From Eledone cirrhosa (taxonomy: Eukaryota), in contig OZ024752.1 of assembly GCA_964016885.1 (NCBI GenBank), positions 44,392,001 to 44,456,000 of the forward strand: DNA of 64,000 nt. Reading direction: 5' to 3'. Of this stretch, positions 3,676 through 63,871 are shown piece after piece. A program made the translations under genes and the position numbers. Position 1 is the first letter of the stretch. Each line of letters opens with the position of its first letter. Below the pieces are notes generated by a model. That model was not told where the DNA came from and searched no databases. It saw only the letters and a program-made list of their open reading frames with translations.

Positions 3676-3944
3676 AGATAAATTTACCACTCAGTGGTAG
3701 GGTCTAAACCGTATAAAGAACTCAATGTAATCCGTATGTAGATGTCGTGAAGCAAAGTTTAAAATACAAAAATGTTTATCAACGATATAATTCAATTGGA
3801 TACAGAGTCAAATTTTGTAATATGTTTTACATAGATCAATAATTGAATGAACATACAGGGAACTTCCCCCCCAGAAACGATCGTAAAATAATGTGTTTTA
3901 CTATGAATTAACAGTTTTGTGTTTAATTTCATTGTTTTAATATT

Positions 3945-3950
<6 letters not shown>
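3676..3950. mobile_element. Rearranged copy of the Penelope-like family at 25569-26131, retaining only the 3' half of the hammerhead
   Basis: gataaatttaccac...cgtataaagaactcaat...tacagagtcaa resembles the reverse complement of 26000-26131. It is followed by GAAACGATCGTAaaataat, which matches 25914-25932. Confidence 0.6.
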
Positions 3951-15465: not shown

Positions 15466-18400
15466 TTGTGCTTGTGTGTGTGTGTGTGGTTGTGTGTGTG
15501 CGCGTGTGTGTGTGTGTGGTTGTGTGTGTGCGTGTGTGTGTGTGTGTGGTTGTGTGTGTGCGTGTGTGTGTGTGTGTGGTTGTGCGTGTGTACACATGCA
15601 TGTATCGGAGGAGGCAGGATTATGTTCAGACATGCACATATTAGTGTTTCTGTATTTCTGGATATAAACGAAACTTGTGAAACAAGTCGTCAGCTCTAAA
15701 GCTCGTTAATTCATTCAATATGAAATGTGTTAGTTTTAACCCTTTAAACTTTCTTTCATTCAACCAAAAATGCCTACACATAAAATTGGATTTGTTATGC
15801 GTGACTGACTTGGTTCATATCTAATCTCATTTCTGTCTGCATGACTAATTCCACTTGAATCAAACTAGTCTCCTGTATCTTTATTACAACACTAGTGTCT
15901 CATTAGTCCCCCCACCCTGACTTTATACATATTTCTGTTCACTGAACATACAATTACATTGACTCCAGGAGAATTGTCCACCTCTTTTCCTCTTCATTCC
16001 TCACTGAACATTGCATTAAGTATGCATCTCAATAGAGCTTAGTATCTACTAATGTAACATACCATAAAACAAGTGGACATATCATTAGTATGTATCTCAA
16101 TAGAGCTTAGTATGAGCTTAGTATCTACTAATGTAACATACCATAAAACAAGTGGACATATCAATAGATTCACTGGAATCTATTCTACTTTGACACTAAA
16201 TCTATATTTCTTTCTTGGTTCACCCCATATTTTACTCCATTTTTCATATCAGCCATCAGCAAGTCTTTAGTTTAGCTGCTGAGATGTCTTAGGAATTCCT
16301 TTTACCATTTTAGGGGACATACTTCTATTGTATCTCTTGGTGTAGTTTAGGGGACATACTTCTATTGTATCTCCTGGTGTAGTTTAGGGGACATACTTGT
16401 ATCTCTTGGTGTAGTTTTGATCTTTCAACCAAAGAAAACATTGTGTATAAGCTATTAGAGTAGAAATGTGTGTGAGTATATGTGTATATTTGTGTGTGTA
16501 TATGAGTATGTGTGTATATGTATGTGTATGTATGTGTGTGTGCACAGCGCTTCTGCCATAAGTGTTTGTAGACAATATTTTCTTTAATACTTTTCCAGCT
16601 GAAAGATCAAATATACTTTCTTCAGTTTGGTCTTCTCTCAATTCTCTCCCCCAAAACACCAAACTTCCATATACCTCCATTAAATGTCATCCGTTTTCTT
16701 TCTTTTTACTTATTTATTTTTTCTTTGAAGTTTTCTTAACAATAAAAGAATTATATTTAACGTGTATGCTCAAAATATTAATATATTCTTGGAGATATGA
16801 ATAAATTTTTCAACTCGTTCGTTTGAAAAATGAAATCTAATTTCTGGAAAGGAGATTCTTAGAATTTAAAATATTGATAAAATATTTTCCTAATTAAATA
16901 CGACTACGAAATTAGGCCAACCTTAATATGATAATGTTGGGATTTATCACATGAATGAACCACAGCAAAATTATTCGGCTTAGCTTTCTTGATAGATTAT
17001 TTGATAATATGCAGTAGTATTGTTCACTTTTGACAAAAAGAAACAAAGCAAAGAACTATTTCATTGATACAAACTTAAGGAGAAAGTTTTACAAACTTAA
17101 TTCTTCTAAGCTATTATTTAATTTTACCCTCTTCAGACAGTTTCTGAAACTACTTTCAAGAGTGTGTTTTTGTGTGTGTGTGTTTTTTTAGGGGAGTGGG
17201 GTGGGGTATTTTATAATGATTAATTATTTGCATATTACTGAGTAACCCTTTAGCTGTTACATTAATCTATATTTACTATTGTATGTTCACGGTAAAGGTT
17301 TTACCTCACATGATATCAAATCTATGAGATTTTCATATCTTTTATTTTGAGAACAATACCTTAACCCTTTACCATTTACATTATTCTATATTTACTATTG
17401 TATTTTCATGGTAAGTGCTTTACCTCATGTAATTATCTCAGAGGTGAGAGTATTCTGGCTGGACACAGCTAGTTTAAATGCTAAAAGGCTAAAGAAAAAA
17501 ATTGTAGAAGCTCATTTTAGAGACTTTAATTTCCTTGATAAATAAAATTAAAATTAAAAAGTTAATAAATGTGTTGAGGATTCTTCATCAGAATACAGTG
17601 AACCCTCTGTCAGCCCACCATGCTAGACAGGTTCTTATTTATTTGCTCTAAAATGATGAAAGTTGATCAAGGTCAGTTTTGAATTCAGTGCCCAGAAAGT
17701 CATAATACCTTAACATCAGCAATATCTCTGATATTCTAACAACTATGATGCTCTAACGACTCTGATATTCTAACGACTCTGCCAATTTGCCAGCCTCCAA
17801 GTTGAAATTAACAAATTTTATTCTGTCTTTCTTCATTATGGCTTGATCAGAAATGGTTATTGGTTCTTTCTTGTGGAAATGTAAACTGAAAGCCATATGT
17901 CTCTCATCCAAAATTCATACTTACCACATTGTTGGCATGAAATCAAACTGTTTTGTCTCCTTCTGAAGACTAAATGGGATGTAGATAATGAGATTGCAGT
18001 CGTACATTTGATATTCTGCCAGACAGTAAAGTGTCATCAATAAATTGTCTTCATTTTCTTTCTACTATTCTTCTTTAAAGAATATTCCTGTTTTATATAT
18101 ATCATACTGTCTTGGCATTAAACAAGTGTATATAGAAGTCTATTTCTGTTGTAAGAGCTAGCACAACTTTATATTAGTTTAACAAAACTTCAAGATTTTT
18201 TTATTTCATCATTGTATTACATAAAAGTAGATTAGTTCAACTTGATTTTATTAGAGTCTCTCTTTCACAGACATTTTACTTCAATAAATCTTCTTCCACT
18301 CTATTTCATAGCCACTCTCCAAAATGACCTTCGCTTGCCTAAACATAATAACTGGAGATTATTCACTCCTAATAAATAAACATTTGTGCATAATTAATAA

Positions 18401-18732: not shown

Positions 18733-18895
18733 AAACCACTTCACTACTGGATGGAGGTGCATGGCCACCCTGGCATATCACAATGATTGCGTAAGCATCT
18801 GACGAAGTCACATGAATAACCATGTAACAGAAATATATATAATGCAATAAACAATTGTGGTGATTTAATCCCGGCCTAACTAGCATTATTTGATA
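18729..18895 (+). mobile_element. About 165-bp hammerhead-bearing element (Penelope pLTR or retrozyme-like) inserted in (TA)n
   Basis: Bounded by (TA)n, with ends tgtcaaa / tttgata. Contains a hammerhead core followed directly by AATAAA. Confidence 0.55.
18795..18845 (+). ncRNA. Minimal type I hammerhead ribozyme
   Basis: gcat-CTGACGA-a-GTCACATG-aataac-CATGTAAC-a-GAAA-T-atat-A-TA-atgc: stem I gcat/atgc, stem II 7 of 8 pairs, minimal stem III. Confidence 0.6.
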
Positions 18896-20199: not shown

Positions 20200-20373
20200 A
20201 GAATGGAGGCGGAAAAAGCCAGTTAGAGCATTACTCACTAGAGTAATCAATACTTTGGGTAGTAGAGTGGGTAATAGGAAAACATTCAGGACCCCGACGG
20301 CTGAGCTCTGGCCGTTTCAACAGCTAGATCATTGAAACGGCCGGAACTCAGCCATTGGGGTCCTGAATGTTTT
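20197..20373. mobile_element. Interspersed repeat with a terminal 42-bp fold-back; related copies at about 12935-13000, 56790-56900 and 62636-62746
   Basis: Arms 20279-20320 and 20332-20373 match at 38 of 42 positions around an 11-nt loop. The motif caatactt.gggtagtagagt.ggtaatagga is shared with the other copies. Confidence 0.65.
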
Positions 20374-22954: not shown

Positions 22955-24139
22955 TGTAGGCGAAATAATGCAATGGTTTAATAGGGAAGATATAACTTAC
23001 GAATTATGTCTCTAACCGTGTAACGCTTTTTAAGTAGATAACTACAATTGAAAATACTAAAGAAATGGAACCAACAATTCAATTTGAAAGTCGTCTAGTG
23101 ACAGTGTATTACTGGTACTTTATTTTATCGACCCCGTAACGATGAAAGGCAAAAATGCAAATGCTTAAAATTTAAATTGCCTTAATTCTATCGTCTGCTG
23201 TTTCATTAAAGGGAGATTATCGTCTGTATTTAATTCTATCGTCTACTGTTCCACTAAACAGATATACCTCCACTATCGTCTCTATTTATACATTTTAACT
23301 TATAACTTATACACATTTGATTTGAAATATTTTATCTAGTCCCCCCTCTCAATATTATGATGATTTCTTTCGAATGAAACAGTTCTAGTCCTGTAGAAGC
23401 CATTTATATATATAATTGAACTGAGTTAAAAATTCACAATATTTATAATTAAATAAGCTCATATATATATGTGTGTATTTATCTGTTTATTGTATTATAT
23501 ATAATGTGTGTATATACAGGATGTCCCCCAAAAATATATACACACTTCAACAGCATTCTAATAACTATTGCCTGTACAGGTAATCAAAGTGTCAATCGAA
23601 TGTTAGTTTCGTGTTTTAACAGTACAAATTTACAATACACACATAAAACCAGTGTATATACATACATGAGTGTGTATACACATACATGAATGTGTATATA
23701 CAATATATATGTATATATATATATAGACACATGTATTCACGGTGCAACGGTACATTAAAATATAGATGCGGGAGAGGGGGTGTATATATAGGGGCGCTGG
23801 GGATAAAGGAGTGTAAAGCGCGTGTAATTGATATATTGAAGGAGAGGAGCGTGCAGCGATAGAGTAACAAATATATAGAGAGGGGGAGAGATGGTATTGA
23901 AGGGGAGGAGTGCAAAGCGAAAGAGTAAGAGATATAAATAGAGACGGAACAGATAGAGAGAAACAGGCGTAAGTAACAGTGGAAGAGATATAGAGAGAGG
24001 TACTCTGATTGGTTGAAAATTAGCCAATGACATACGATCACCACCACGGCTATCCCCGAAAAATTTTTAAAGAAGCTAGGCATATATGTTAGAACACGAA
24101 AAGTGAACATTCTGTGTTTCACACTTTTCGTGTTCTAAC

Positions 24140-25571
<1,432 letters not shown>

Positions 25572-25635
25572 AAATATTAAACAAATAATGAATAAAACAA
25601 TGAAACAGTTCCTTATATTAAACAAAAAAAGTTCA

Positions 25636-25782
25636 TTATTTAACGATCGTTTCTAGGATATATATGTGTTAGAATTGGCATGCATATTCAACAGATCTAT
25701 GTACAAAATTATACAAAATTATACAAACTATCAAGATTAAATATACATACCAAACACACATATATGCCGTCTTCAGAAATAA
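25636..25782 (-). ncRNA. Mirror-image hammerhead ribozyme on the minus strand
   Basis: Exact reverse complement of 25785-25931, a consequence of the palindrome. Confidence 0.65.
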
Positions 25783-25784
25783 AT

Positions 25785-25931
25785 TTATTTCTGAAGACGG
25801 CATATATGTGTGTTTGGTATGTATATTTAATCTTGATAGTTTGTATAATTTTGTATAATTTTGTACATAGATCTGTTGAATATGCATGCCAATTCTAACA
25901 CATATATATCCTAGAAACGATCGTTAAATAA
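25785..25931 (+). ncRNA. Type I hammerhead ribozyme with extended stem II
   Basis: ttattt-CTGAAGA-[about 115-nt hairpin]-GAAA-C-gatc-G-TT-aaataa. Confidence 0.65.
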
Positions 25932-26129
25932 TGAACTTTTTTTGTTTAATATAAGGAACTGTTTCATTGTTTTATTCATTATTTGTTTAATATTTTATCT
26001 TGACTCTGTATTCCGTTTATCTTTCACCGAAAGTGATTTTTCATTACATCTCTTCTTTCCATGATATCCGGAATATATTGAGTTCTTCATACGGATTGGA
26101 CACTACCGTAAACTCTTGGTAGATTTATC

Positions 26130-26831
<702 letters not shown>

Positions 26832-27872: not shown

Positions 27873-28292
27873 AGAGAAGGTGGTAGAGGAGAGGGAGGTG
27901 TTGTGTAGTCAGGGTTAGAGAAATTATATTACTGTAAACATGATGCCTACTGGCTAAATTAACTCCACAGACAAGTTACTGGTCTTCCACTTCAATGCTC
28001 AATAACAACAACAACCCCAAACATACAGCCACTGTCTCCTCTCCTCCATCTCTCATATCCATTTATATTTTTATTTCACATTCATCTTGTTTGTTTTACC
28101 AACAACCCTACCCTGTTGCTAAGTATCACCCTCTCAACCATTATTTGGATTATATCTTGATTGCAAGTAATTCAAAAGACAAGAAAAGAGATTGTGAGAG
28201 GGGGGGGGGGCTTTATTGTTTTATTTGTTTTCTGTTTAAACATAATCACTTCTATTGCATAACTTATGCTATTGTTTCGTCTTGTTGGTTAT

Positions 28293-28522
28293 ATCATCAT
28301 CATCATCATCATCATCATTTTGCGTCCGCTCTTCCCTGCTTGCAAGGGTGGGACGGGTCTTATTCAGCACAGCATCTCTCCACTCGTCACGGTCCTTCGT
28401 CATCTCCACCGTGAGCTTCAACGATCTGAGGTCTGTTCTCACCACCTCCGCCCATGTTTTTCGTGGTCTACCTCTACCACGTCTTCCTTCAACTGGCATT
28501 TCCTGGCACTTCTTCACCCATC
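28293..28522 (-). mobile_element. 5'-truncated RTE LINE 3' end
   Basis: KKCQEMPVEGRRGRGRPRKTWAEVVRTDL...RDEWR followed by a (GAT)n tail. Confidence 0.9.
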
Positions 28523-28537
28523 GGGTGTGTATATATA

Positions 28538-28588
<51 letters not shown>

Positions 28589-28734
28589 ATAATAATAAAT
28601 GTGAAGACTAAAATCCAAAGAGGGCTCGATAAAGATAAATATATATCAAATATATAAGAACCCTAGAGCATATATATTGTATATATATCATCATCATCAT
28701 CATCATCATGATATATATATATATATATATATAT

Positions 28735-34362: not shown

Positions 34363-35180
34363 TACCTGTAATTCCAATTGTCCTTTTATTTCAGACATTT
34401 GTAAAGCAAACACAACATATGCTAATTATTTGTATTGAAACAATAATGTCTGTTTATTCTAGGATGTATAACTCTAGCTTAGCTTTTCCAATTATTTCAG
34501 AATTGTTTTCAATTGATTAACAGTTCTGCATGACTTCATTTCAATTTCTTTTGTTTTCTTTGTTACAGCCAGTTGTTGGCAATTTAAAGTGAATGTATTT
34601 AGCAACTTCTGCAGTCTATTAGACTTTTCTTTTGTTAGAGAGACTATATAAACTTGTACTCACAATATCATACCTTCAGTGCATATTGCCTTAATTACAA
34701 TTCATTCAGAATACCTTCTCTTTCTTCTCCCAGCCTTTCAATGTGAACTGTCGTTTCACTCAGAAAGCTCTAAACATTATCTCCAGTTTCTATTCTTCCT
34801 CTTCTTTCTTTCTTTTTCTTGTTATGTAAGAAATCAATACTATTATTTTTTCTGTGTATTGTATCTTGTATGCATGAATGATCTCGACGAGAGCGAAGCT
34901 TTTCAGTCTTTTTTTAATATTGAAATAGAATCAGTTGTGATATCCACCTTAGTCAAAAGCTACTTCTTTCTTTATTTGATGTCTTTTAAAATATATTTTA
35001 GTTGTTTTTTTTTATCAAAATCTCAGAGAAAAATGTTGTAATTTTCTGTGTTTTAAGAATTATCAATCCACTTTCATCAACAGTTCACAGTTCTTCACAG
35101 TTCACAGTTGTTTGTTAAAAATATCATCCTTTGAATTATTTCTTTTTTTAGATATAGATTCAAATATAAAACAAGTTTAT

Positions 35181-35400
35181 ATCATCATCATCATCATCAT
35201 CATTTTTAGATCTGTTTTCCATGCTTGCATGGGTTGGACATGTCCTTCTCGGCACAGCATCTCTCCATTCGACGAGTTCCTTTGTTAGCTCCTCTATGAT
35301 CCTCAGTGATTTGAGATCAGTTCTCACCAAGAACCTCTGTCCAGGTCCTCCTCTACTGCATCTTCCTTCCACTGGCATTTCCTGGCACTTCTTCAGCCAT
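35181..35400 (-). mobile_element. 5'-truncated RTE LINE 3' end
   Basis: MPVEGRCSRGGPG...RTDLKSL...EWRDAV followed by a (GAT)n tail; homologous to 28293-28522. Confidence 0.85.
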
Positions 35401-36096
35401 ATCTCTTTGATGAGTTGTAGTGCACCTGAGCACTGTACACAATAATTTCATCATTATTATTATTATTATGATATTACTATGCTAGTCATTGCCTGTGATA
35501 TCTTCCTGTACTACCTGATTGACTCTGAGAATATCCATTATCTTCCTGCTTGTCTATTCTGCCATATCTTTAATTCTGCTCTCAACCATTTAGATCTTCT
35601 ATACAATATATAGATATTCTTATATATTTTATATATATTACAAAGATAATATTCCCACAAGTGGAGAAGACTAGAAAGCTGTAAAGCTCTGTTTACTCTG
35701 TGTACTGGAAGTTTTTTAGTTGAATTACATTTTAGAATTCCATCTTATGGATGTAGCTTAAGGTTGAAACACACTTAAAATATAAATCACATCATTTTTT
35801 TTATAAATGTAATTCTTAAAATTTCATTTCAAAATTCAGAATGAAAAATATGTTGTACCTCCTTCCAACATTCCTCATATAAAGGATGTCTTATGATTAT
35901 ATAAACTCTTTCTTAGAAGAAAATTAGATAATTGTAATTTGTTTTGAGATTATGATATGTTTTAACTGTGTTTCCTATAACTTTTGTATTTGTATTTTTA
36001 TATCTCTTTAACATGGGAAGAATTGTCGGAGAAGTTCTCAAAGTGGGTGATAGAATAGTTTTTTTTTAAAGCCATTTTCACTATTTTATCTTTTAG

Positions 36097-36865: not shown

Positions 36866-39800
36866 CATATTGTTTATATGCTTCAGCATGTACCCATGGG
36901 AGGTCGGGTACCCTGTATTACTGCGTGACGCCAGAAGTCACGGTCGTGTGTCATTGACTTTGAGAGGTGTAGTTGGGTAAGGTCGGCTCTTATCACCTCA
37001 TCCCAAGTCATCTTGGGTCTCCCCACTCCGCGGTTTCCATCAACTTCTAGTGCTCTGCACCTTTTTATGCAGCTGTCATCCTTCATACGCATCACATGTC
37101 CATACCAGCGTAACCGCCTCTCCTGCACGCAGCATTTGATTCCTCTTATGCTCAGTCTCTCTCTCAATTCATTTATGCTTTGTCGTTCACGTATATTACT
37201 GTTACACATCCATCGGAGCATGCAGGCTTCGTTTCTCTCTAATCTACGTAAGTCTTCCACCTTCAGCGCCCAGGTCTCACTACCATGCAACATCGCTGTT
37301 CGGATACACGCATCATACAGTCTGCCTTTCATTCTGAGGGAGAAGCCTTTTGCAGCTAGCAGTGGTAGTAGTTCCCTAAACTTCTTCCATCCCGTTCTTA
37401 CCCTAGTTATTGTACTTTCTGAGCACCCACCTCCGTTGCTAATTCGGTCACCTAGGTAGCAGAAGCTGTCTACTGTTTCTACAGGGCCCTCCCAGAGATT
37501 GGTGGTACTTGTTTCCTGTGGCTGTTTGCTTGCTGTTTCAGCACAGCTGCTGCATGTGAATCCTACATTCTTAATTAAGCTTCCTGAGATCCCGCTACAT
37601 CTCTTGTGTACCCATTGTTTGCATTTGGGGCAAAGAATGGAGTTCCTACCTACACCTTTCCTACATACTGAGCAAGGCCATTTCCCTGAGGGGATCTGGG
37701 TTCTGTTTTCTCGTCTACTTATAAGGACCTTAGTCTTTGTCATGTTGACTTTGAGGCCCTTTCTCTCTAGTCCCTGCTTCCAGGTTTGGAATTTATTCTC
37801 TAGTTCTACCATAGATTCAGCTATGAGTGCGAGGTCATCAGCATACAGGAGTTCCCATGGGCATCCGGTCTTAAACTCCTCCGTTATTGCCTGCAGGACT
37901 ATGATGAACAGGAGAGGGCTAAGAACAGAGCCCTGGTGGACCCCAACCTGTACGCTAAATTCCTCGCTATACTCATTGCCAATCCTAACTTTGCTGACTG
38001 CTCCCCTATACATGGCTTGTACCGCTTTCACAAGCCATTCATCTACTCCTAGTTTTCTAAGAGCCCACCAGATTACTGCACGTGGAACTCTGTCAAAGGC
38101 TTTCTCAAGGTCGACAAATGCCAAGTAGAGTGGCTTACTTTTAGCTAGGTACTTTTCCTGTAATTGCCTCACAAGGAAGAGCGCATCAGTGGTGCCTTTC
38201 CCTGGAACAAACCCAAATTGCATCTCGTCTATATTCACCCGGTCCCTAATCAGCTGTGCTATAACTCTTTCTGTTACTTTCATGACCTGGTCCATCAACT
38301 TTATACCTCTATAGTTTCCTCTATCTAGTGCATCGCCTTTACCTTTGTAGCAGTTGACAATGATGCTACTGCACCAATCTTTTGGTATGGCCCCCTCTAG
38401 TATTACCTGGTTAACGATACGTGTGGTTATAGTGTGACCTACAGACCCAGATGCCTTCAGCATCTCGGCAGCTATACCCGATGGACCGGTTGCCTTCCCT
38501 ATCTTCATATCTCTGATTGCCTTACTTACTACGCTGCCGCTGACTTGTACTGCTGGTCCCTCTATAGGGTCTACGTGGGGTAGGGTCTCTTCTTCCCATG
38601 CATTCTCCTCATTTAGTAATCTATCATAATGACTCTTCCATGCATCTTTCTTCTCAGCACTTGTGAGGGCAAGCTCACCTTTATCATTCCGGATACACTT
38701 CTCTCCAATGACATCACAACTATCTCTGACACACTGCCTCGCAATCTTGAATACCTCCTGTTTCTGGTCCTCACGTTGTAAAACATGCTTGAATTTTCTA
38801 TCCTCTGCTTCCCTCCTAGCTAAGTATACTTGTCGCCTAGCTTCCCTCTTGGTCTCTATGTAATGTACCCTGCTCCCCCCGTTCTTCCATTCTTTCCATG
38901 CCTGTCTCTTGGCCTTGACTGCTTCATCTACCTTATTGTTCCACCACCAAGTCACTCTCCTCCTGCTTGAGGTCTTACTCCAGCCACAAACCTCATCCGT
39001 CGCCTCTAGTAAGTTATTTTTTAGGAACTCCCAGTTCTCTTCTACGTTAAATGTCTCTATCTGTTCTTCTTTACTGTCGTAGGCGTTGAGTAAAATATCT
39101 TTAAATCTGTTACTGGTTGAGGGGACTTTCAGCTTCCAGATCTTTCTTCTCCAGGTTGGCCTCTGTTTCAGGGCTCGTCTAGTTCTGACCGTGAGGTCGC
39201 TGACAACTAAGCTATGTTGGGATGTACATTCCTCACTAGGGAAGGCTTTTGTGTTTACGACCGTCCATCTGTCACGTCCTCTGATGAGAATAAAATCTAA
39301 CTGACTAGAGTGCTCCCCTGATCTATAGGTGATCAGGTGGTTGTCGGGTTTTTTAAAGTTTGTGTTACATATCGACATGTCATTGGCGTCGCAGAATTCT
39401 AGAAGTCTGAATCCTTCCTCATTCCTTGTGCCAACTCCATGGCCTCCATGTACTCTATTGAAGCCGTCGCAGTGTTTACCTACGTGTCCGTTAAAATCTC
39501 CTGCAATGATTAGGAAGTCCTTGTCGTCTGTTAGAGCAGTAGTGTGTATTAGGGACTCGTAAAACCTATCCTTAAGTTCGTCTGGCAGCCCCGATTGGGG
39601 TGCGTAAGCTGATATTATTGTGGTAATTGTCTTATTCAGGACTAGTCTGAGTTTAATGATTCTTGCATTTACCCTGTACACTGAGATTACTTTATCTACC
39701 CACTTGTCAGCTAATAGTATACCTACACCACCCATCCCATCGTCATTTCCCACCCAGAAAAATTTGTAGCACTGGCTTTTTCCTACAAGGACTCTAGCAG

Positions 39801-39962
39801 ACCCTCCTCTCCATCTAGTCTCTTGCACACAGCATACATCAACTTCCTTTCGCTCTAGCATTTCTACGATTTCTCCTGCTCTTCCTTTCATTGAGCCTAC
39901 ATTGATGGTACCAACTCGGAGTTTTGGGCATTTGTCGACACTCGTAGGGGAGGGTCTCTGGG
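36866..39962 (-). mobile_element. RTE-clade LINE, near full-length, 5'-truncated
   Basis: Single endonuclease-RT ORF. LINE-like sequence ends at about 39962, followed by AT-rich host sequence. Confidence 0.9.
36883..39891 (-). CDS. RTE LINE polyprotein: AP endonuclease + reverse transcriptase + PHD-like finger
   Basis: APE motifs VQETRW, SAYAP, GDFNGHVG, QLDFIL, SQH; RT motifs NYRGIKL, QFGF, FVDLEKAFD, GVHQGSVLSPLLF, YADD, YLG; RTE C-terminal RLRWYGHV and GRPKMTW. Confidence 0.97.
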   Translation of the reverse strand: MKGRAGEIVEMLERKEVDVCCVQETRWRGGSARVLVGKSQCYKFFWVGNDDGMGGVGILLADKWVDKVISVYRVNARIIKLRLVLNKTITTIISAYAPQSGLPDELKDRFYESLIHTTALTDDKDFLIIAGDFNGHVGKHCDGFNRVHGGHGVGTRNEEGFRLLEFCDANDMSICNTNFKKPDNHLITYRSGEHSSQLDFILIRGRDRWTVVNTKAFPSEECTSQHSLVVSDLTVRTRRALKQRPTWRRKIWKLKVPSTSNRFKDILLNAYDSKEEQIETFNVEENWEFLKNNLLEATDEVCGWSKTSSRRRVTWWWNNKVDEAVKAKRQAWKEWKNGGSRVHYIETKREARRQVYLARREAEDRKFKHVLQREDQKQEVFKIARQCVRDSCDVIGEKCIRNDKGELALTSAEKKDAWKSHYDRLLNEENAWEEETLPHVDPIEGPAVQVSGSVVSKAIRDMKIGKATGPSGIAAEMLKASGSVGHTITTRIVNQVILEGAIPKDWCSSIIVNCYKGKGDALDRGNYRGIKLMDQVMKVTERVIAQLIRDRVNIDEMQFGFVPGKGTTDALFLVRQLQEKYLAKSKPLYLAFVDLEKAFDRVPRAVIWWALRKLGVDEWLVKAVQAMYRGAVSKVRIGNEYSEEFSVQVGVHQGSVLSPLLFIIVLQAITEEFKTGCPWELLYADDLALIAESMVELENKFQTWKQGLERKGLKVNMTKTKVLISRRENRTQIPSGKWPCSVCRKGVGRNSILCPKCKQWVHKRCSGISGSLIKNVGFTCSSCAETASKQPQETSTTNLWEGPVETVDSFCYLGDRISNGGGCSESTITRVRTGWKKFRELLPLLAAKGFSLRMKGRLYDACIRTAMLHGSETWALKVEDLRRLERNEACMLRWMCNSNIRERQSINELRERLSIRGIKCCVQERRLRWYGHVMRMKDDSCIKRCRALEVDGNRGVGRPKMTWDEVIRADLTQLHLSKSMTHDRDFWRHAVIQGTRPPMGTC

Positions 39963-40109
39963 TTATATACTTTTAATACCATATTATCACGAAAGACTAG
40001 TCTTTGAGTTTGTTTAAACCATATTCCTGACAATGGCATATATCAATTCTTTTCAGGTTTCTATTTTTTCTTTTCTGCTTGTAATATAATTTTGAAATAC
40101 AAAGTATTT

Positions 40110-41944: not shown

Positions 41945-42052
41945 AAAGCCATCATCCAGGCTGCTACTATGTTAAAAGAATTCTATCCATACCATGTTCT
42001 TCAACGTTTACCAATATCTGAGCAAGAATTCTGGGAAAAACAACAGCTGGAG
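41945..42052 (+). CDS. Host gene exon C (phase 0-0)
   Basis: gtgtttcag| ... gag|gtaaat; [36 protein letters not shown]. Confidence 0.88.
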
Positions 42053-42985
42053 GTAAATGATTGGAAAGGTAAATAGTGATTTCTTTGATACCCTCCAGGG
42101 ACTGCTGCCAACATTTTAATCAATTCTTACAAATATTACACACAATCTTATTCTTTTACCTTCATTATTGTTTTATTACCTTTCTTTGCTTCTTTCTTTC
42201 TTTTCTCCTCCTGCTTCTTCTTTTTCTTTTTCTTTTTCTTTTTCTTTCACTGAGAAAGAAATACATGCAATCCTTATATAAAAAATATATTCCTTTACTT
42301 TTGATTTTTAAATCACACTGAGGTAGATTTGGTGGTGGTGGTTCTGGCAATGTCGGTAGCAGTGTCTTAGAGTAAATCTTAACCAACTCTACCCTACCTC
42401 CAAATATTAATGGACTGGTCCAGAACTAGAGTAAATCTTAACCAACTCTACCCTACCTCCAAATATTAATGGTCTGGTCCAGAACTAGAGTAAATCTTAC
42501 CCAACTATACCCTACCTCCAAAAATTTGAGGATTTGTGTCTTTATATTATAAATACATATTAAAAAAAAAAAGAATTGTTATTTTGTTCTTGTGTGAAGA
42601 CCTTTTTTTTAACCAGGTTTAACTTTCAAGAAACTGAAATTCTCTTGACTCTATTTACCAGGTTTAGCTTGCAAGAAACTCACTGAAATATTTTCGAAAA
42701 ATTTTTTGGTTCCATTAGAAGAAACTGACAACCATTTTGAACTAAAGGTAAGACTATAGATGCATAAATTGTTTTTATTAACCCTTTTGTTACCATATTG
42801 CAAATAAAGGACACTGGCTTTATGTATTTCAAAACTAGATTGTCTTCAATGTTTAGTTTACACAAGTGGACTATTTTATAAACTATCTTTATAGCATTGA
42901 GCACTTTCTTTATACCTATATACCTATATATATATATTCCAATTCCAACCTGCCCATCCCTTCAATCTATCTTATTTCTCATGCT

Positions 42986-43022
42986 TTCTTCTGATGAAGG
43001 ACTAGCATCCAAAAGGTTAAGA
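42986..43022 (+). ncRNA. Degenerate minimal hammerhead in a Penelope pLTR-like remnant (about 42938-43110)
   Basis: tctt-CTGATGA-aGGA-ctagca-TCC-aAAAgGTT-aaga; the expected GAAAC is mutated. Confidence 0.45.
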
Positions 43023-43269
43023 CCCTCTTCCTGCTATATCAAGCGTTAACCTAATATATCCCTTCCATATACTGTACCGATTGTGTTGTTATTTCTGTTT
43101 ACCTTTTACATACATACATATATATATATATTCTCAGCACTTCAAAAGCCAAAATATTCGGTTTCATACATTTTATGAATAAATATTTTATAAATATCGT
43201 ACATGTTTACCTTTCCTTAATATTTCTGAATCTCACTAATCACAAAGTTTAATGATGGTCGTTTGACAG

Positions 43270-45353: not shown

Positions 45354-45663
45354 GTTTGTATAACTTTGTATGACTCCATGATTGAACATTTAAAGCCTTT
45401 ATCCTAATATAGTAAATTATAACCACTAGTAAAAAATACTGTAAACATTTGAATTAATAAATACATTTTCTACTAAATAATGAGTGGTTAACAGGAGAAT
45501 TTTCATAAATATTACTAATTTATTGTTTTGACAAAAATTGGTGGTAATGTAAAAGAAAAGAATATACCATTTTCAATAATATTTAACGAATATTGTGGTA
45601 TTTTTTAAATTAGTCCCTGTTTTTCATTTTTTTTCTAACATATAGCATTTGTTTTTTTCTCAG

Positions 45664-46060
45664 GGAAAATGATCAATACCCTATCAACTTTGAAGACCTC
45701 TATTGTCAGAGAATTATCAAGGCTACTAAAGAAGTCCCTTATGTTGATGTTGGACATCTATCTTCACCAGAACTTTTCGAACTTGAACCCAGCACACCAG
45801 ATATCGGTACTTTTGGTGAACCAATCAATCTATTATCCCACCTAGCACAACAGGAAGCTTCTTATTTCTCTGATGACAATGTTGGGGGTGTTACAGGAAC
45901 CAGCAGTCCTGCTCTAGATAGTAATATGACCAATTCAGTACAAAATAGTTCGGTTGATGAACCAGACAAAGATGAAACTGCTGAAGGTCACATTGTCTAT
46001 GAAGAGAATGAAAGGGACAGTAGCTGTATTATTGAATTAAGGGAAATTGCAAATGGATGA
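45664..46060 (+). CDS. Host gene terminal coding exon G with acidic tail and TGA
   Basis: ttttttctcag| then 132 codons, RENDQYPINFEDLYCQRIIK...IIELREIANG*. Confidence 0.88.
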
Positions 46061-55404: not shown

Positions 55405-55510
55405 CTTTACAGCTGAATGATGTGGAGTAACGTTGAATAAAGTGTCTTGCTCAAGAACACAACCAAAACCTGGTCTGGGAATCGAATTCCCAATTATAAA
55501 ACCCGACACT
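55405..55510 (-). mobile_element. Family-B SINE 5' part
   Basis: The plus strand reads aaagtgtcttgctcaagaacac...gaatcgaa...ctctaaccactaagccatcc. Confidence 0.75.
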
Positions 55511-56400
55511 CTAACCACTAAGCCATCCACATAAACACTTCGCGCATGCGTAATTAAGGTAAATCGGTTTAGGAAAAATAATGGCTGCCTGAAGAACTTC
55601 GTGTTTTCCAACCTGAATAAACAAAACGTAAAAAACTTGGATTTTATTATTTTACGGAGGTAAATTATAGTTTTATTTGGCATACATGACTTTTAGCGGT
55701 CTGAAAAATGAAATGAAATTTATTTTCACTTTCAACGTCATGAAAATGAAACTACATTTATTGGAGGCTTCGATGACATTGTAGAGATCGATGAATCGAA
55801 ATACTTCCATAGAAAGTATCATCGTGGCCAGTGGAGACAAGACCACTGGGTCTTCGGCGCTGTTGAAGGCCATTCTGGACGCTGCTGTAGAAGTCCCAGA
55901 TGGAAACCGTGAGACTCGTACTGTGCCAAGAAGAAGCTTCGTCGCCAACATGGGACCAGCAATCCTTTATTTCCCTCATATCTAGCTGAGTTGGCGACAG
56001 AGAGTTGGTGCCAACAAGTTTGGCGAAATGCTGAACTGTATTGGAGCTATTTACAGGGTGTAGTAAAGATTTTTCTAAGGTTGGTAAATTTAAATTTTAT
56101 ATGCAACAAACGTTTAAATATGTAATTTTTTTCAACACACAGAACGGACTATCAACATTTACAGTCGAAAATGAAAATAATTAATGAAAATAAATGTAGT
56201 TTCATTTTTCAGACCGCTAAAAGTCATGTATGCCGTTTTATTTTGTGTTGAAGATTTTTATTGAAACATTTTATTTCCCTCCAAAATGTCAGAAATAATT
56301 ATTTAACGGATAGTTTACAACTGTCACTAGCACGTGGTGTTGTTATTCACTGTCTTATTTACTACCTGTTAATACGGACAGCTTGTTGTGTTCTCTACTT

Positions 56401-56433
<33 letters not shown>

Positions 56434-56958
56434 ATAGATGTCAGCTTCCACCCTCCAGTTTATATATACACACACGTATATATATATATATGTGTGTGTG
56501 TGTGTATAGATGTCAGCTTCCACCCTCCAGTTTATATATACACACACATATGTATATATATATATATATATGTGTATAGATGTCAGCTTCCACCTTCTAG
56601 TTTATATATACACACACGTGTATATATATATATATATGTGTGTGTGTATAGATGTCAGCTTCCACCCTCCAGTTTATATATACACACACGTATATATATA
56701 TATACATATGTGTGTGTGTGTATAGATGTCAGCTTCCACCTTCTAGTTTATATATACACACACATATATATATATTTATATAGTCCAGAAATAGCCGTCG
56801 AAACGGCTTGAGCTCTGCCGTCGGGGTCATACTTTCTCCTATTACCCACTCTACTACCCTAAGTATTGAGTACTCTGGTTCCTTACCACACCTCCTTCGC
56901 TATATATATATATGTCAACATCAATAAGAGAAGTGATACCGCCACCTAGTGTTCTCTA

Positions 56959-57014
<56 letters not shown>

Positions 57015-57855
57015 GATATAAAGATGTCAGCCACCCTATATCTGTGTATATATATATATACACAGATATAAAGATGTCAGCCACCCTCTAGTGTTCTCTA
57101 CTTTATCGAACACTTAGTATTTTAAAAGATTGTATTATGTCTACCCTCTGACTCCTACATTCCAGCGTGTGTATGTATATATATATACATAAATGTGTTT
57201 GTTGTGGTGCACCTGGGCACTGTGCACAATATTTCATTATTGTTATTGTTATTATATCATGACTCATACACTGTTTATTTTCCTGACATTTGTACATTAT
57301 TCTATGTACTATACATGCACCTTTGATGAGTTGTAGTGCACCTGAGCACTGTACACAATAATTTCATTATTATTATTATTATATAGATGTAGATATATAT
57401 AATGTATAGAGATATGGAAGTATTCTCTCTATCCGAGAAGCGATAAACCTAAGCGGTTGGTCCACTGTTTCTTGTTTGAGGTTGTTCCAGTGGTCGCACA
57501 TCCTGAAGGGGTTCCTAGGACTTGGTGCACCTCTAGCTTCATGTTGTGTCATCATGTAGTCCTGTTGAGCCTCTCTCAAAGGTACATTGTCACAGTTGGG
57601 ACACCTAATGTACTCTACCGGACTTTTCTGGTATTTTAAAAGCTTGTATTATATGTGTATATATAAAACATGGCCCTCTGGTCGCCTCTCAGTGTCAACG
57701 AAGCTACACCATGACGGGAGAATACTTTGGTGATCTAAACCCGATCACAGTATCTCGGAGCGGTGACTTTATATACACACATTCAGGCATCTTATTAGTA
57801 TGTTGTGTATATATATATATGTGTATGTTTATATATATGTATGTGTATATATATG

Positions 57856-57895
<40 letters not shown>

Positions 57896-58025
57896 TGTAT
57901 GTATATATATATATATGTATATGTATATATGTATGTATATATATATATGTATGTATATATATATATGTATGTATATATATATATGTATGTATATATATAT
58001 ATGTATGTATATATATATATGTATG

Positions 58026-59946: not shown

Positions 59947-60093
59947 GTATATGTATATATATATGTATGTATATATATATATATATGTTATATATATATA
60001 TATATAGTATATATATATATGTGTATATATATTATATATATATGTATAGTATATATATATATGTATATATATATATATGTATATATATATATG

Positions 60094-60148
<55 letters not shown>

Positions 60149-60201
60149 GTATATATATATGTATATATATGTATATATATATGTATATATATATGTATAT
60201 G

Positions 60202-60232
<31 letters not shown>

Positions 60233-61147
60233 GTAGTTGTCGTACAATGAAAAGAGCATCTGTGGTACTTTTGCCTGACACAAACCCGAACTGCATTTCA
60301 TCTAGATCGATTCTCTCTCTGATTAGTTGCGCTATTACTTTTTCCGTGACCTTCATGACCTGGTCGATTAATTTAATCCCTCTATAGTTACTCTGTCCTA
60401 GGGCGTCTCCTTTACCCTTGTAACAGTTAATGATGATGCTGCTACGCAGTCCTTCGGAACAACCCCAGTCAGTTCTGTACTATCAGGGTTGTATGCTGGG
60501 TTCGACCATGGTGTGTCCCACCGTTCCACATATATATATGTATGTATATATGTATGTATGTATATATGTATATATATATGTATGTATATATGTATGTATA
60601 TGTGTATATATATGTATATGTATGTATGTGTATGTATATGTATGTATATGTATGTATATGTATGTATATATATGTATGTATATGTATATATGTATGTATA
60701 GTGTATATGTATATGTATGTATGTATATATATGTATGTATGTATATATGTATGTATGTATATATGTATGTATGTATATATATGATGTATGTATGTATATG
60801 TATGTATGTATGTATATGTATATGTATGTATAGTATATGTATATGTATGTATGTATATATGTATATGTATGTATGTATGTATGTATGTATATGTATATGT
60901 ATGTATATGTATGTATATATATGTATGTATGTATATGTATGTATATATATATATGTATGTATATGTATGTATATATATATATGTATGTATGTATATATAT
61001 GTATTTATGTATGTATATATATATATGTATGTATATGTATGTATATATATATATGTATGTATGTATATATGTATATGTATGTATATATGTATATGTATGT
61101 ATGTATATATGTATATGTATGTATATATATGTATGTATATGTATAGT

Positions 61148-61312: not shown

Positions 61313-62246
61313 AACCTGGTCTGGGAATCGAATTCCCAATTATAAAACCCGACACTCTAACCACTAAGCCATCCACATAAACACTTCGCGCATGCGTAAT
61401 TAAGGTAAATCGGTTTAGGAAAAATAATGGCTGCCTGAAGAACTTCGTGTTTTCCAACCTGAATAAACAAAACGTAAAAAACTTGGATTTTATTATTTTA
61501 CGGAGGTAAATTATAGTTTTATTTGGCATACATGACTTTTAGCGGTCTGAAAAATGAAATGAAATTTATTTTCACTTTCAACGTCATGAAAATGAAACTA
61601 CATTTATTGGAGGCTTCGATGACATTGTAGAGATCGATGAATCGAAATACTTCCATAGAAAGTATCATCGTGGCCAGTGGAGACAAGACCACTGGGTCTT
61701 CGGCGCTGTTGAAGGCCATTCTGGACGCTGCTGTAGAAGTCCCAGATGGAAACCGTGAGACTCGTACTGTGCCAAGAAGAAGCTTCGTCGCCAACATGGG
61801 ACCAGCAATCCTTTATTTCCCTCATATCTAGCTGAGTTGGCGACAGAGAGTTGGTGCCAACAAGTTTGGCGAAATGCTGAACTGTATTGGAGCTATTTAC
61901 AGGGTGTAGTAAAGATTTTTCTAAGGTTGGTAAATTTAAATTTTATATGCAACAAACGTTTAAATATGTAATTTTTTTCAACACACAGAACGGACTATCA
62001 ACATTTACAGTCGAAAATGAAAATAATTAATGAAAATAAATGTAGTTTCATTTTTCAGACCGCTAAAAGTCATGTATGCCGTTTTATTTTGTGTTGAAGA
62101 TTTTTATTGAAACATTTTATTTCCCTCCAAAATGTCAGAAATAATTATTTAACGGATAGTTTACAACTGTCACTAGCACGTGGTGTTGTTATTCACTGTC
62201 TTATTTACTACCTGTTAATACGGACAGCTTGTTGTGTTCTCTACTT

Positions 62247-62279
<33 letters not shown>

Positions 62280-62804
62280 ATAGATGTCAGCTTCCACCCT
62301 CCAGTTTATATATACACACACGTATATATATATATATGTGTGTGTGTGTGTATAGATGTCAGCTTCCACCCTCCAGTTTATATATACACACACATATGTA
62401 TATATATATATATATATGTGTATAGATGTCAGCTTCCACCTTCTAGTTTATATATACACACACGTGTATATATATATATATATGTGTGTGTGTATAGATG
62501 TCAGCTTCCACCCTCCAGTTTATATATACACACACGTATATATATATATACATATGTGTGTGTGTGTATAGATGTCAGCTTCCACCTTCTAGTTTATATA
62601 TACACACACATATATATATATTTATATAGTCCAGAAATAGCCGTCGAAACGGCTTGAGCTCTGCCGTCGGGGTCATACTTTCTCCTATTACCCACTCTAC
62701 TACCCTAAGTATTGAGTACTCTGGTTCCTTACCACACCTCCTTCGCTATATATATATATGTCAACATCAATAAGAGAAGTGATACCGCCACCTAGTGTTC
62801 TCTA

Positions 62805-62862
<58 letters not shown>

Positions 62863-63701
62863 GATATAAAGATGTCAGCCACCCTATATCTGTGTATATA
62901 TATATATACACAGATATAAAGATGTCAGCCACCCTCTAGTGTTCTCTACTTTATCGAACACTTAGTATTTTAAAAGATTGTATTATGTCTACCCTCTGAC
63001 TCCTACATTCCAGCGTGTGTATGTATATATATATACATAAATGTGTTTGTTGTGGTGCACCTGGGCACTGTGCACAATATTTCATTATTGTTATTGTTAT
63101 TATATCATGACTCATACACTGTTTATTTTCCTGACATTTGTACATTATTCTATGTACTATACATGCACCTTTGATGAGTTGTAGTGCACCTGAGCACTGT
63201 ACACAATAATTTCATTATTATTATTATTATATAGATGTAGATATATATAATGTATAGAGATATGGAAGTATTCTCTCTATCCGAGAAGCGATAAACCTAA
63301 GCGGTTGGTCCACTGTTTCTTGTTTGAGGTTGTTCCAGTGGTCGCACATCCTGAAGGGGTTCCTAGGACTTGGTGCACCTCTAGCTTCATGTTGTGTCAT
63401 CATGTAGTCCTGTTGAGCCTCTCTCAAAGGTACATTGTCACAGTTGGGACACCTAATGTACTCTACCGGACTTTTCTGGTATTTTAAAAGCTTGTATTAT
63501 ATGTGTATATATAAAACATGGCCCTCTGGTCGCCTCTCAGTGTCAACGAAGCTACACCATGACGGGAGAATACTTTGGTGATCTAAACCCGATCACAGTA
63601 TCTCGGAGCGGTGACTTTATATACACACATTCAGGCATCTTATTAGTATGTTGTGTATATATATATATGTGTATGTTTATATATGTATGTGTATATATAT
63701 G

Positions 63702-63741
<40 letters not shown>

Positions 63742-63871
63742 TGTATGTATATATATATATATGTATATGTATATATGTATGTATATATATATATGTATGT
63801 ATATATATATATGTATGTATATATATATATGTATGTATATATATATATGTATGTATATATATATATGTATG

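Follow-up and report, generated by a model that had tools for sequence, protein, structure and literature searches.

Insertions of Penelope-like elements (PLEs), as the accessible parts of the literature describe them, carry an inverted 5'-truncated copy and a tail of 30-40 bp at one end, and show a preference for (TA)n targets (PMC8557442). Head-to-head inverted repeats, with palindromes at their junctions and pLTRs of 193-218 bp, have been reported as abundant (PMC3846280). Hammerhead ribozymes occur on opposite strands at distances of 100-700 bp, and those of metazoan PLEs are weak on their own (PMC4209133); one element, Penelope-13_HM, is listed with a hammerhead on each strand, and the published hammerhead descriptors use spacers of 7-17 and half cores of 35-50 nt (PMC8557442). 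In work with a purified Penelope-like protein, both strands of the target are cut and extended, and copying begins at two sites within the RNA whose separation equals the tail; the ribozyme of PAc (Poseidon of Anolis) needs its protein, and insertion does not require the ribozyme (PMC11167929). The formation of inverted copies and the function of the hammerhead are named as open questions in these reports (PMC8557442, PMC11167929). Among cephalopods, Octopus vulgaris has 190 Penelope-like families, amounting to 6.83% of its genome (PMC13282606).

Here we compare with these systems an element from a 64,000-nucleotide stretch of Eledone cirrhosa contig OZ024752.1 (the window), which combines a perfect palindrome, a one-sided tail and a hammerhead motif. 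We think it quite probable that the element arose in one insertion, 5'-truncated in both copies, by a Penelope-like reverse transcriptase (RT) and endonuclease (EN), with both (TA)n strands priming and the copies joined head to head.

A palindromic element between two (TA)n arrays

The palindrome (25569-25998) is perfect and has no spacer; its 215-bp arms meet at the axis 25783/25784, exactly as an earlier note on this DNA had claimed, and the first mismatch falls at arm position 216. With pure dinucleotide runs left out, the runner-up perfect arm in the window measures 41 bp. A tail of 133 unique bases (25999-26131) follows on the right side only and brings the whole element to 563 bp, and the two large (TA)n arrays that the note had placed around it, of about 1370 bp on the left and 700 bp on the right, do enclose it (Table 1). 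Variant TA units point the same way in both flanks (direct, not mirror), which argues for insertion into one array and not for a mirrored read. Microsatellite target is present on both sides, a target-site duplication (TSD) is unreadable inside (TA)n, and the output of a general repeat search of the window was dominated by (TA)n.

Table 1. Features of the palindromic element, its flanks and its diverged relative (window positions)
Feature	Position	Strand	Remarks
Left (TA)n target array	24198..25568		TACA/TAAA variant units near the element, oriented as in the right array
Inverted 5'-truncated copy, pLTR-like arm, short end, without tail	25569..25783	-	Tip meets (TA)n; tip corresponds to family end 25998
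Mirror copy of hammerhead motif	25636..25782	-	From exact palindrome
Direct 5'-truncated copy, pLTR-like arm	25784..25998	+	Exact palindrome; one X5 contig is exactly 25785-25998
Leftover stem I 5' strand, 6 nt (10 nt in uninverted copies)	25785..25790	+	Loose ends in X9 (2 contigs) and X6 (2 contigs)
Hammerhead core, first half, CTGAAGA	25791..25797	+	
Stem II, 116 nt; outer helix 32 bp with five G-U pairs	25798..25913	+	
Core second half with self-complementary stem III (ACGATCGT); predicted cut after 25925	25914..25925	+	Kept in the relative at 3873-3884
Stem I 3' strand	25926..25935	+	
Two downstream mimics of stem I 5' strand (25963-72, 25975-84)	25963..25984	+	Predicted capture of stem I 3' strand
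One-sided tail, long end, 133 bp	25999..26131	+	Junction bridged by X4 contig; same end in the relative at 3676
Right (TA)n target array	26132..26830		
Diverged relative	3676..3948	-	Between (TA)n runs; part of the inverted arm (about positions 64-215) runs straight into the tail

Several other features of the window were recorded alongside the element. Within the left array, TACA units give way to TATG variants (about 24350-24850) and then return to TACA, forming an inverted block within the microsatellite. Immediately to the left of this array lies an imperfect hairpin of about 64 bp (24082-24145), which has a 17-nt stretch in common with stem II and sits at the end of an element whose direct subrepeats occupy 23834-23943. 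A 1029-aa open frame on the minus strand (36883-39972) contains endonuclease and reverse transcriptase motifs and is apparently intact, an RTE-like LINE by motif reading, and fragments of its family lie at about 28270-28600, 35160-35450 and 59990-60480. Positions 55467-58000 and 61313-63846 form a direct duplication of at least 2.5 kb and 99.8% identity, each copy of which meets a TA array; the pair is either a recent tandem duplication or an assembly duplicate. A host gene of about 1211 aa (PF25228) has exons on the plus strand at 41950-42070 and 45660-46060, 16-20 kb to the right of the palindrome; of two protein matches to the exon at 45662-46057, one carries a name, Octopus vulgaris, and is 98% identical.

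Build, variation and predicted folding of the hammerhead motif

The right arm holds the parts of a type I hammerhead at the positions given in the earlier note: TTATTT (25785-90), CTGAAGA (25791-97), GAAA-C-GATC-G-T (25914-24) and AAATAA (25926-31), with the cut predicted after T25925. The type I core (CUGANGA, GAAA and NUH) and three helices are present as a motif, and the main cut-site variant, GTT to GTA (33% in X1, one of the public runs considered below), is still NUH. Stem II, which the note had put at about 115 nt, measures 116 nt. Left out of the earlier description were an unpaired C (5' side) and UA (3' side) through which stem II meets the core; a G10.1-C11.1 pair directly beside the core is absent, the C and UA intervening before the G-C pairs. 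Strict hammerhead scans overlooked the motif because of these unpaired letters. The matches that such scans returned at 17591, 33407 and 53874 have no stem II pairing and were set aside as chance, and no hammerhead appears among the 150 of 270 Rfam matches listed, which show only microRNA models on TA/TG repeats. Standard hammerhead searches, with spacers up to 17-50 nt, would miss abundant families with a stem II of 116 nt.

Stem II shows signs of structure at the RNA level, as the note had proposed from three deviations that it read as G-U wobbles. Three T-G pairs are indeed present in the 16-bp helix (25818/25888, 25822/25884 and 25828/25878), and the folding energy of stem II is -42.4 kcal/mol on this strand vs -20.8 on the other; for 25784-25945 the folding gives z = -5.8, with none of 200 shuffles equally stable. 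Variants fit pairing on the ribozyme strand: among the X1 variants listed, seven lie at paired stem positions, and the pairing survives in six of them on the ribozyme strand but in none on the opposite one. The count omits loop, bulge, cut-site and similar variants (25839, 25895, 25925, 25936 and 25959), six tail variants and three variants found mainly in X6. All six that keep pairing are A/G changes opposite U (the chance of six transitions out of six is about 0.04, post hoc). Two-sided covariation in the helices is absent among the listed variants, which offer only these one-sided changes in tables that are different listed subsets, incomplete and unphased. One-sided A/G changes would be expected alike from selection for pairing and from editing copied into DNA.

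Cephalopods have high ADAR activity. In X6, which has the organism code of X1 and is another sample, perhaps of DNA and from another animal, A-to-G at 25892 accounts for 370 of 1074 depth in 17 contigs, vs 0 of 321,727 in X1, and A-to-G at 25830 for 98 of 236 in 7 contigs, vs 4 of 154,574. Among the X6 differences at 25823-25892, A-to-G occurs on the ribozyme strand only and T-to-C does not occur, a pattern that resembles A-to-I editing of the sense strand and that we take as a hint.

Uninverted copies bear on stem I. In two X9 and two X6 contigs, the strand before the ribozyme ends in TTCATTATTT or a G-U variant of it, and TTCATTATTT pairs with AAATAATGAA at 25926-35, so that native stem I has 10 bp and is interrupted by the junction. 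The axis coordinate of the earlier note therefore stands, and its placement one base before stem I does not, since the axis lies inside that helix. Four of the 10 bp are removed by the junction; the six A-U pairs that remain have a duplex energy of -0.1 kcal/mol vs -6.6 for the full helix. When the hammerhead is forced on 25784-25945, it lies 5.5 kcal/mol above the best predicted fold, in which UUUCUG pairs with UAGAAA and conceals the core. The two downstream mimics agree with the stem I 5' strand at 9/10 and 10/10 letters, and in the whole arm they are predicted to pair with the stem I 3' strand at a probability of 0.73-0.97, stem I itself reaching about 2e-5. For read-through RNA, the 215-bp duplex is computed at -357 vs -177 kcal/mol with the hammerhead forced, which places the duplex ahead by 180. 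By these predictions the hammerhead would be off in this copy, both as a single arm and as a palindrome, in folding that does not model dimers, stem III being of the dimer type. Self-cleavage of transcripts from either direction, which the note had envisaged, is unlikely here. The predictions agree with the weakness of lone metazoan PLE hammerheads (PMC4209133) and with the protein-dependent PAc ribozyme (PMC11167929), as reported in the accessible parts of those sources.

The suggestion that further hammerheads lie at 18.8, 20.3 and 43.0 kb was borne out for the first site, by half for the last and not for the second. Positions 18795-18843 (+) hold a whole minimal type I hammerhead motif of unrelated sequence, in an insert of roughly 170 bp between (TA)n runs, with a 4-bp stem I, CTGACGA, an 8-bp stem II flanked by an additional A at either side and a self-complementary stem III. 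At 42985-43030 (+), in an insert between short (TA)n runs, CTGATGA and a short hairpin are present and the GAAA half reads CAAAA, which makes the motif a decayed hammerhead at best. Positions 20283-20372 were rejected as a hammerhead; neither strand contains CTGANGA, and the sequence, about 90 nt long and rich in GC, folds into a near-perfect, MITE-like hairpin (-73 kcal/mol on either strand).

Family ends, inversion junctions and proposed origin

Evidence on the family comes from contigs of public runs, eight of which were compared; part of 25784-26131 is contained in 20 of the 24 runs listed, none of them on record as RNA. X1, which may be the sample behind the assembly, has 1586 contigs on 357 bases, which makes the family a very abundant one, with contig depths here being sums and not copy numbers. 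In X22, raw Hi-C reads sampled at about 1 in 100, 0 of 12,836,656 reads aligned, a count that carries no weight here. Family words are shared across 16 studies and many organism codes; with eight of the 24 runs compared, we do not take this as evidence on host range or horizontal transfer. The near-equal shares of the variant at 25925 in X1 and X4 (33% each) would fit carry-over, and the X4 signal may be low-level carry-over of like DNA. A metagenome scan returned 4 loci with matches of 21-29 nt only, and a viral scan 16 loci without extended likeness. The family may already be catalogued in the O. vulgaris repeat library or in Repbase/Dfam.

Among the 12 of 81 loose-end rows listed, the arm ends at 25998 and passes into (AT)n in six X1 contigs and one X4 contig, variants of the tail end near 26107-26131 and pass into (TA)n in five contigs, and nine contigs continue past the tail end into further sequence. 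One X4 contig (depth 43) bridges 25969-26137, from the arm into the tail. The family has two fixed ends 133 nt apart, 25998 and 26131, each abutting (TA)n, with TTTATCT at both and once more within the tail, where there is no known end. Uninverted copies in X9 and X6 continue upstream of the arm; the family unit exceeds 348 nt, and no tandem monomers are found at this locus. The earlier note is supported in its reading of a real element of Penelope type that targets (TA)n and bears a hammerhead, and the family proves to be high-copy.

Inversion junctions were sought by adding 20 bases of the mirror arm to the query, with only the mirror arm at this axis supplied. X1 contigs that cross the axis have a summed depth of about 5,800 vs 150,000-160,000 at the arm start (3.6-3.8%); some 96% of the arm-start depth lies in contigs that do not cross it, and most family copies do not turn at this axis. 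Eight junction length variants are listed for X1 (-6, -5, -5, -3, -2, -1, -1 and +1), in 20 contigs with a depth of 283-718 each, together with one record with 14 gaps. In X4, from another study, a contig of depth 10 reaches 15 letters beyond 25785 into the mirror arm through a fold-back junction two bases shorter than that of the window, the sole fold-back among the six X4 loose ends listed. No depth across the axis was found in X6, X7 or X9, of which X7 stops short and X9 (about 10) and X6 (160-200) are shallow. Fold-back inside the arm is absent from the six X1 loose-end rows listed (22 contig ends; 25 contigs partly aligned; 14 of 28 rows listed in all), in a region where junctions are harder to detect and short contigs may drop out. 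The recurrence of junctions near the ribozyme is supported by at least eight variants in X1 and one in X4, and clustering at stem I is suggested, not proved, since the query held this mirror arm alone. Because other junction variants lie near the axis, one of them also in a second study, the palindrome is with high probability real and not an assembly artefact.

The relative that the earlier note saw at 3676 was confirmed by alignment (77% over 66 nt, E 2e-8; 65% identity overall). On the minus strand it runs from the arm tip back to about position 64 and then into the tail; the palindrome and the first core half are absent. Its outer ends are as in the palindromic element, its inner ends do not overlap, and it keeps a helix equivalent to the one that competes with stem I (3885-93 with 3930-38).

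In the mechanism that we propose, a Penelope-type enzyme would cut (TA)n, and each cut target strand would prime DNA synthesis from the same RNA sequence with its hammerhead, one copy starting at 25998 and the other at 26131, so that the difference in start sites becomes the tail. Both copies would end at the stem I 5' strand, where stopping would be common without being obligatory, and the joining of their AT-rich 3' ends would lose 0-6 bases or gain one. As the 215 nt are covered by both copies, the process would require strand displacement or a second RNA molecule. A long copy stopping where the short one starts would yield the layout at 3676, and both copies reaching stem I would yield the palindrome; two primers explain why the relative shares the outer ends and has non-overlapping inner ones. 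The ends and junctions are seen directly in the contigs, and from them we infer the priming, stopping and joining. Twin priming is known from L1. The hammerhead is proposed to be inherited cargo of the element end, and the RNA may have come either from the end of an autonomous element (Hydra-like, with a TA target and a similar ribozyme build) or from a small non-coding parasite. Counting against two-sided insertion are the lack of a linked RT or GIY-YIG gene, the unreadable TSD and a tail of 133 nt vs 30-40. No RT or GIY-YIG open reading frame (ORF) is present at the locus, and the two of six tail frames searched gave no credible protein relative and no coding evidence: one 40-aa frame had a single phmmer match, to a tandem-repeat protein (E 2.7e-4, over a short shared stretch), and of three candidates for the second frame none held.

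The main rival is the snap-back or self-priming favored in the earlier note, in which a cDNA or antisense RNA would fold at stem I, copy itself to 25998 and anneal its AT-rich end to the target. Near-zero spacers at a recurring place are what it would produce, a short AATAA...TTATT inverted repeat lies at the turn point upstream of uninverted copies (an X9 loose end), and self-priming, with antisense RNA proposed, is the published reading in the accessible part of PMC3846280. We nevertheless consider it unlikely, and two-sided priming fits better: with inverted and direct parts that do not overlap, the relative at 3676 would need a later deletion exactly to the tail boundary, odd offsets (-1, -3, -5 and +1) occur in 16 of the 20 junction contigs listed, and extension of both strands has been observed in vitro (PMC11167929). 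What stands of the snap-back proposal is the recurrence of junctions at the ribozyme, the layout at 3676 being explained by two-sided priming instead. Perfect spacerless palindromes are also a known library artefact, and our evidence consists of contigs, not raw long reads, with X1 possibly the source sample. A fold-back chimera from library making or assembly is still extremely improbable here, as the mirror ends at the true family end, 133 unique bases lie on one side only, the TA flanks are unmirrored, and several X1 junction variants have depths in the hundreds, with one more in another study.

Inverted arms and the lack of a protein link would also suit a MITE or a fold-back DNA transposon whose hammerhead match is dead or due to chance. 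Such a non-Penelope origin appears highly unlikely given the asymmetric arms with their one-sided tail, the varying junctions and a full ribozyme build with self-complementary stem III that is partly kept in a relative of 65% identity; the stem variants that keep pairing on one strand (6/7 vs 0/7) speak against it as well. We also give very little credence to the palindrome being kept as a regulatory device, whether to supply long dsRNA or to act as a self-cleaving switch in both directions. Its perfect arms and the predicted duplex of read-through RNA would suit that role, but perfect arms are expected from recent insertion, stem I is shortened with the ribozyme fold predicted to be so rare in one arm, and junction lengths differ between copies. 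A further reading, which we hold to be doubtful, makes the hammerhead fold a stop mark and cutter: the downstream helix would act as an off-switch that the RTs unwind, stem I would close and both RTs would stop, and stem II would be an ADAR target with its G-U pairs as editing fossils. Were this so, closure of stem I ahead of the RTs would fix where Penelope palindromes turn, and A-to-I edits of stem II would have been copied into DNA, the G-U pairs not being selected wobbles. Having two start sites separated by 133 nt and a large number of junctions near one helix, the family offers a clean test of two-sided priming, the reading we prefer, vs snap-back.

Comparison with known Penelope-like and hammerhead systems

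The locus has several traits of EN+ Penelope-like insertions, with an inverted copy adjoining a direct copy, a tail at one end (at 133 nt, outside the usual 30-40), a hammerhead motif in the terminal repeat and a (TA)n target. The earlier note had called it the best candidate for an undescribed system, which does not hold, as the accessible parts of the literature already describe inverted pLTRs whose junctions are palindromic and that carry a tail on one side (PMC3846280, PMC8557442), as well as opposite-strand hammerheads (PMC4209133) and Penelope-13_HM. The Pen2a, Pen2 and Pen3a units of A. vaga (PMC3846280; scheme in PMC8557442 Fig. 2) share head-to-head copies of ~200 bp, a junction palindrome, a tail at one end and an AT-rich target. 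The present element differs in that no ORF lies between the copies, the junction falls within stem I, the TSD is unreadable and the tail is longer (133 nt vs 30-40).

Hydra-clade PLEs (Hydra-1_Obim, Penelope-13_HM and Penelope-17_HM), as far as the accessible descriptions go, share the (TA)n target, a type I hammerhead near the end and a self-complementary stem III, and in many members of the clade, as here, the base of stem II is flanked on either side by additional unpaired letters. The CTGAAGA core is that of Hydra-1_Obim, and Penelope-13_HM has an inverted 5' copy and its two hammerheads. For stem II plus loop, the Hydra rows give 11-24 nt and the longest of all 34 rows 53 nt (accessible part of PMC8557442 File S2), vs 116 nt here. 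The likeness to this clade is one of target and ribozyme build only, the RT/EN protein not being recovered here. Four probe motifs gave no sequence link to Hydra-1_Obim in files whose line breaks may hide matches; in the accessible consensus files of PMC8557442, the probes ACGATCGT and GAAACGATCG had 0 matches and the other probes scattered chance matches. The Naiad clade, in the accessible accounts, lacks a canonical hammerhead and has an N-terminal EN. A stem II this long would escape the published descriptors, so the hammerhead motif here does not exclude Naiad.

The minimal and dimer-type hammerheads of metazoan PLEs (PMC4209133, accessible part) share with this one a weak palindromic helix III, an extra base after A9, opposite-strand pairs and a low expected monomer activity. 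Helix II has 7-8 bp there vs the 32-bp outer helix here, and a downstream helix competing with stem I is not mentioned in that part of the source. Animal non-LTR retrozymes, which are thought to be derived from and moved by PLEs (PMC7229834; bioRxiv 10.64898/2026.07.22.740005; both in their accessible parts), are likewise non-coding and low in GC, with a type I hammerhead, a 1-bp stem III and a palindromic tetraloop; they form tandem monomers and circular RNA, whereas no tandem occurs at this locus. PAc (PMC11167929, accessible part) shares two internal start sites downstream of the hammerhead and an AT-rich target, and its use of uncut RNA as template, with a ribozyme that is silent without protein, may be likened to this element. 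Its start sites are 30-40 nt apart and inside an ORF, vs 133 nt apart and without an ORF here. The literature consulted, mostly openly readable and in its accessible parts, contains no PLE hammerhead with a stem II this long, no tail of 133 nt and no junction inside stem I. The layout of the element is that of a known kind of Penelope insertion, and what is unusual is its ribozyme arm and its tail.
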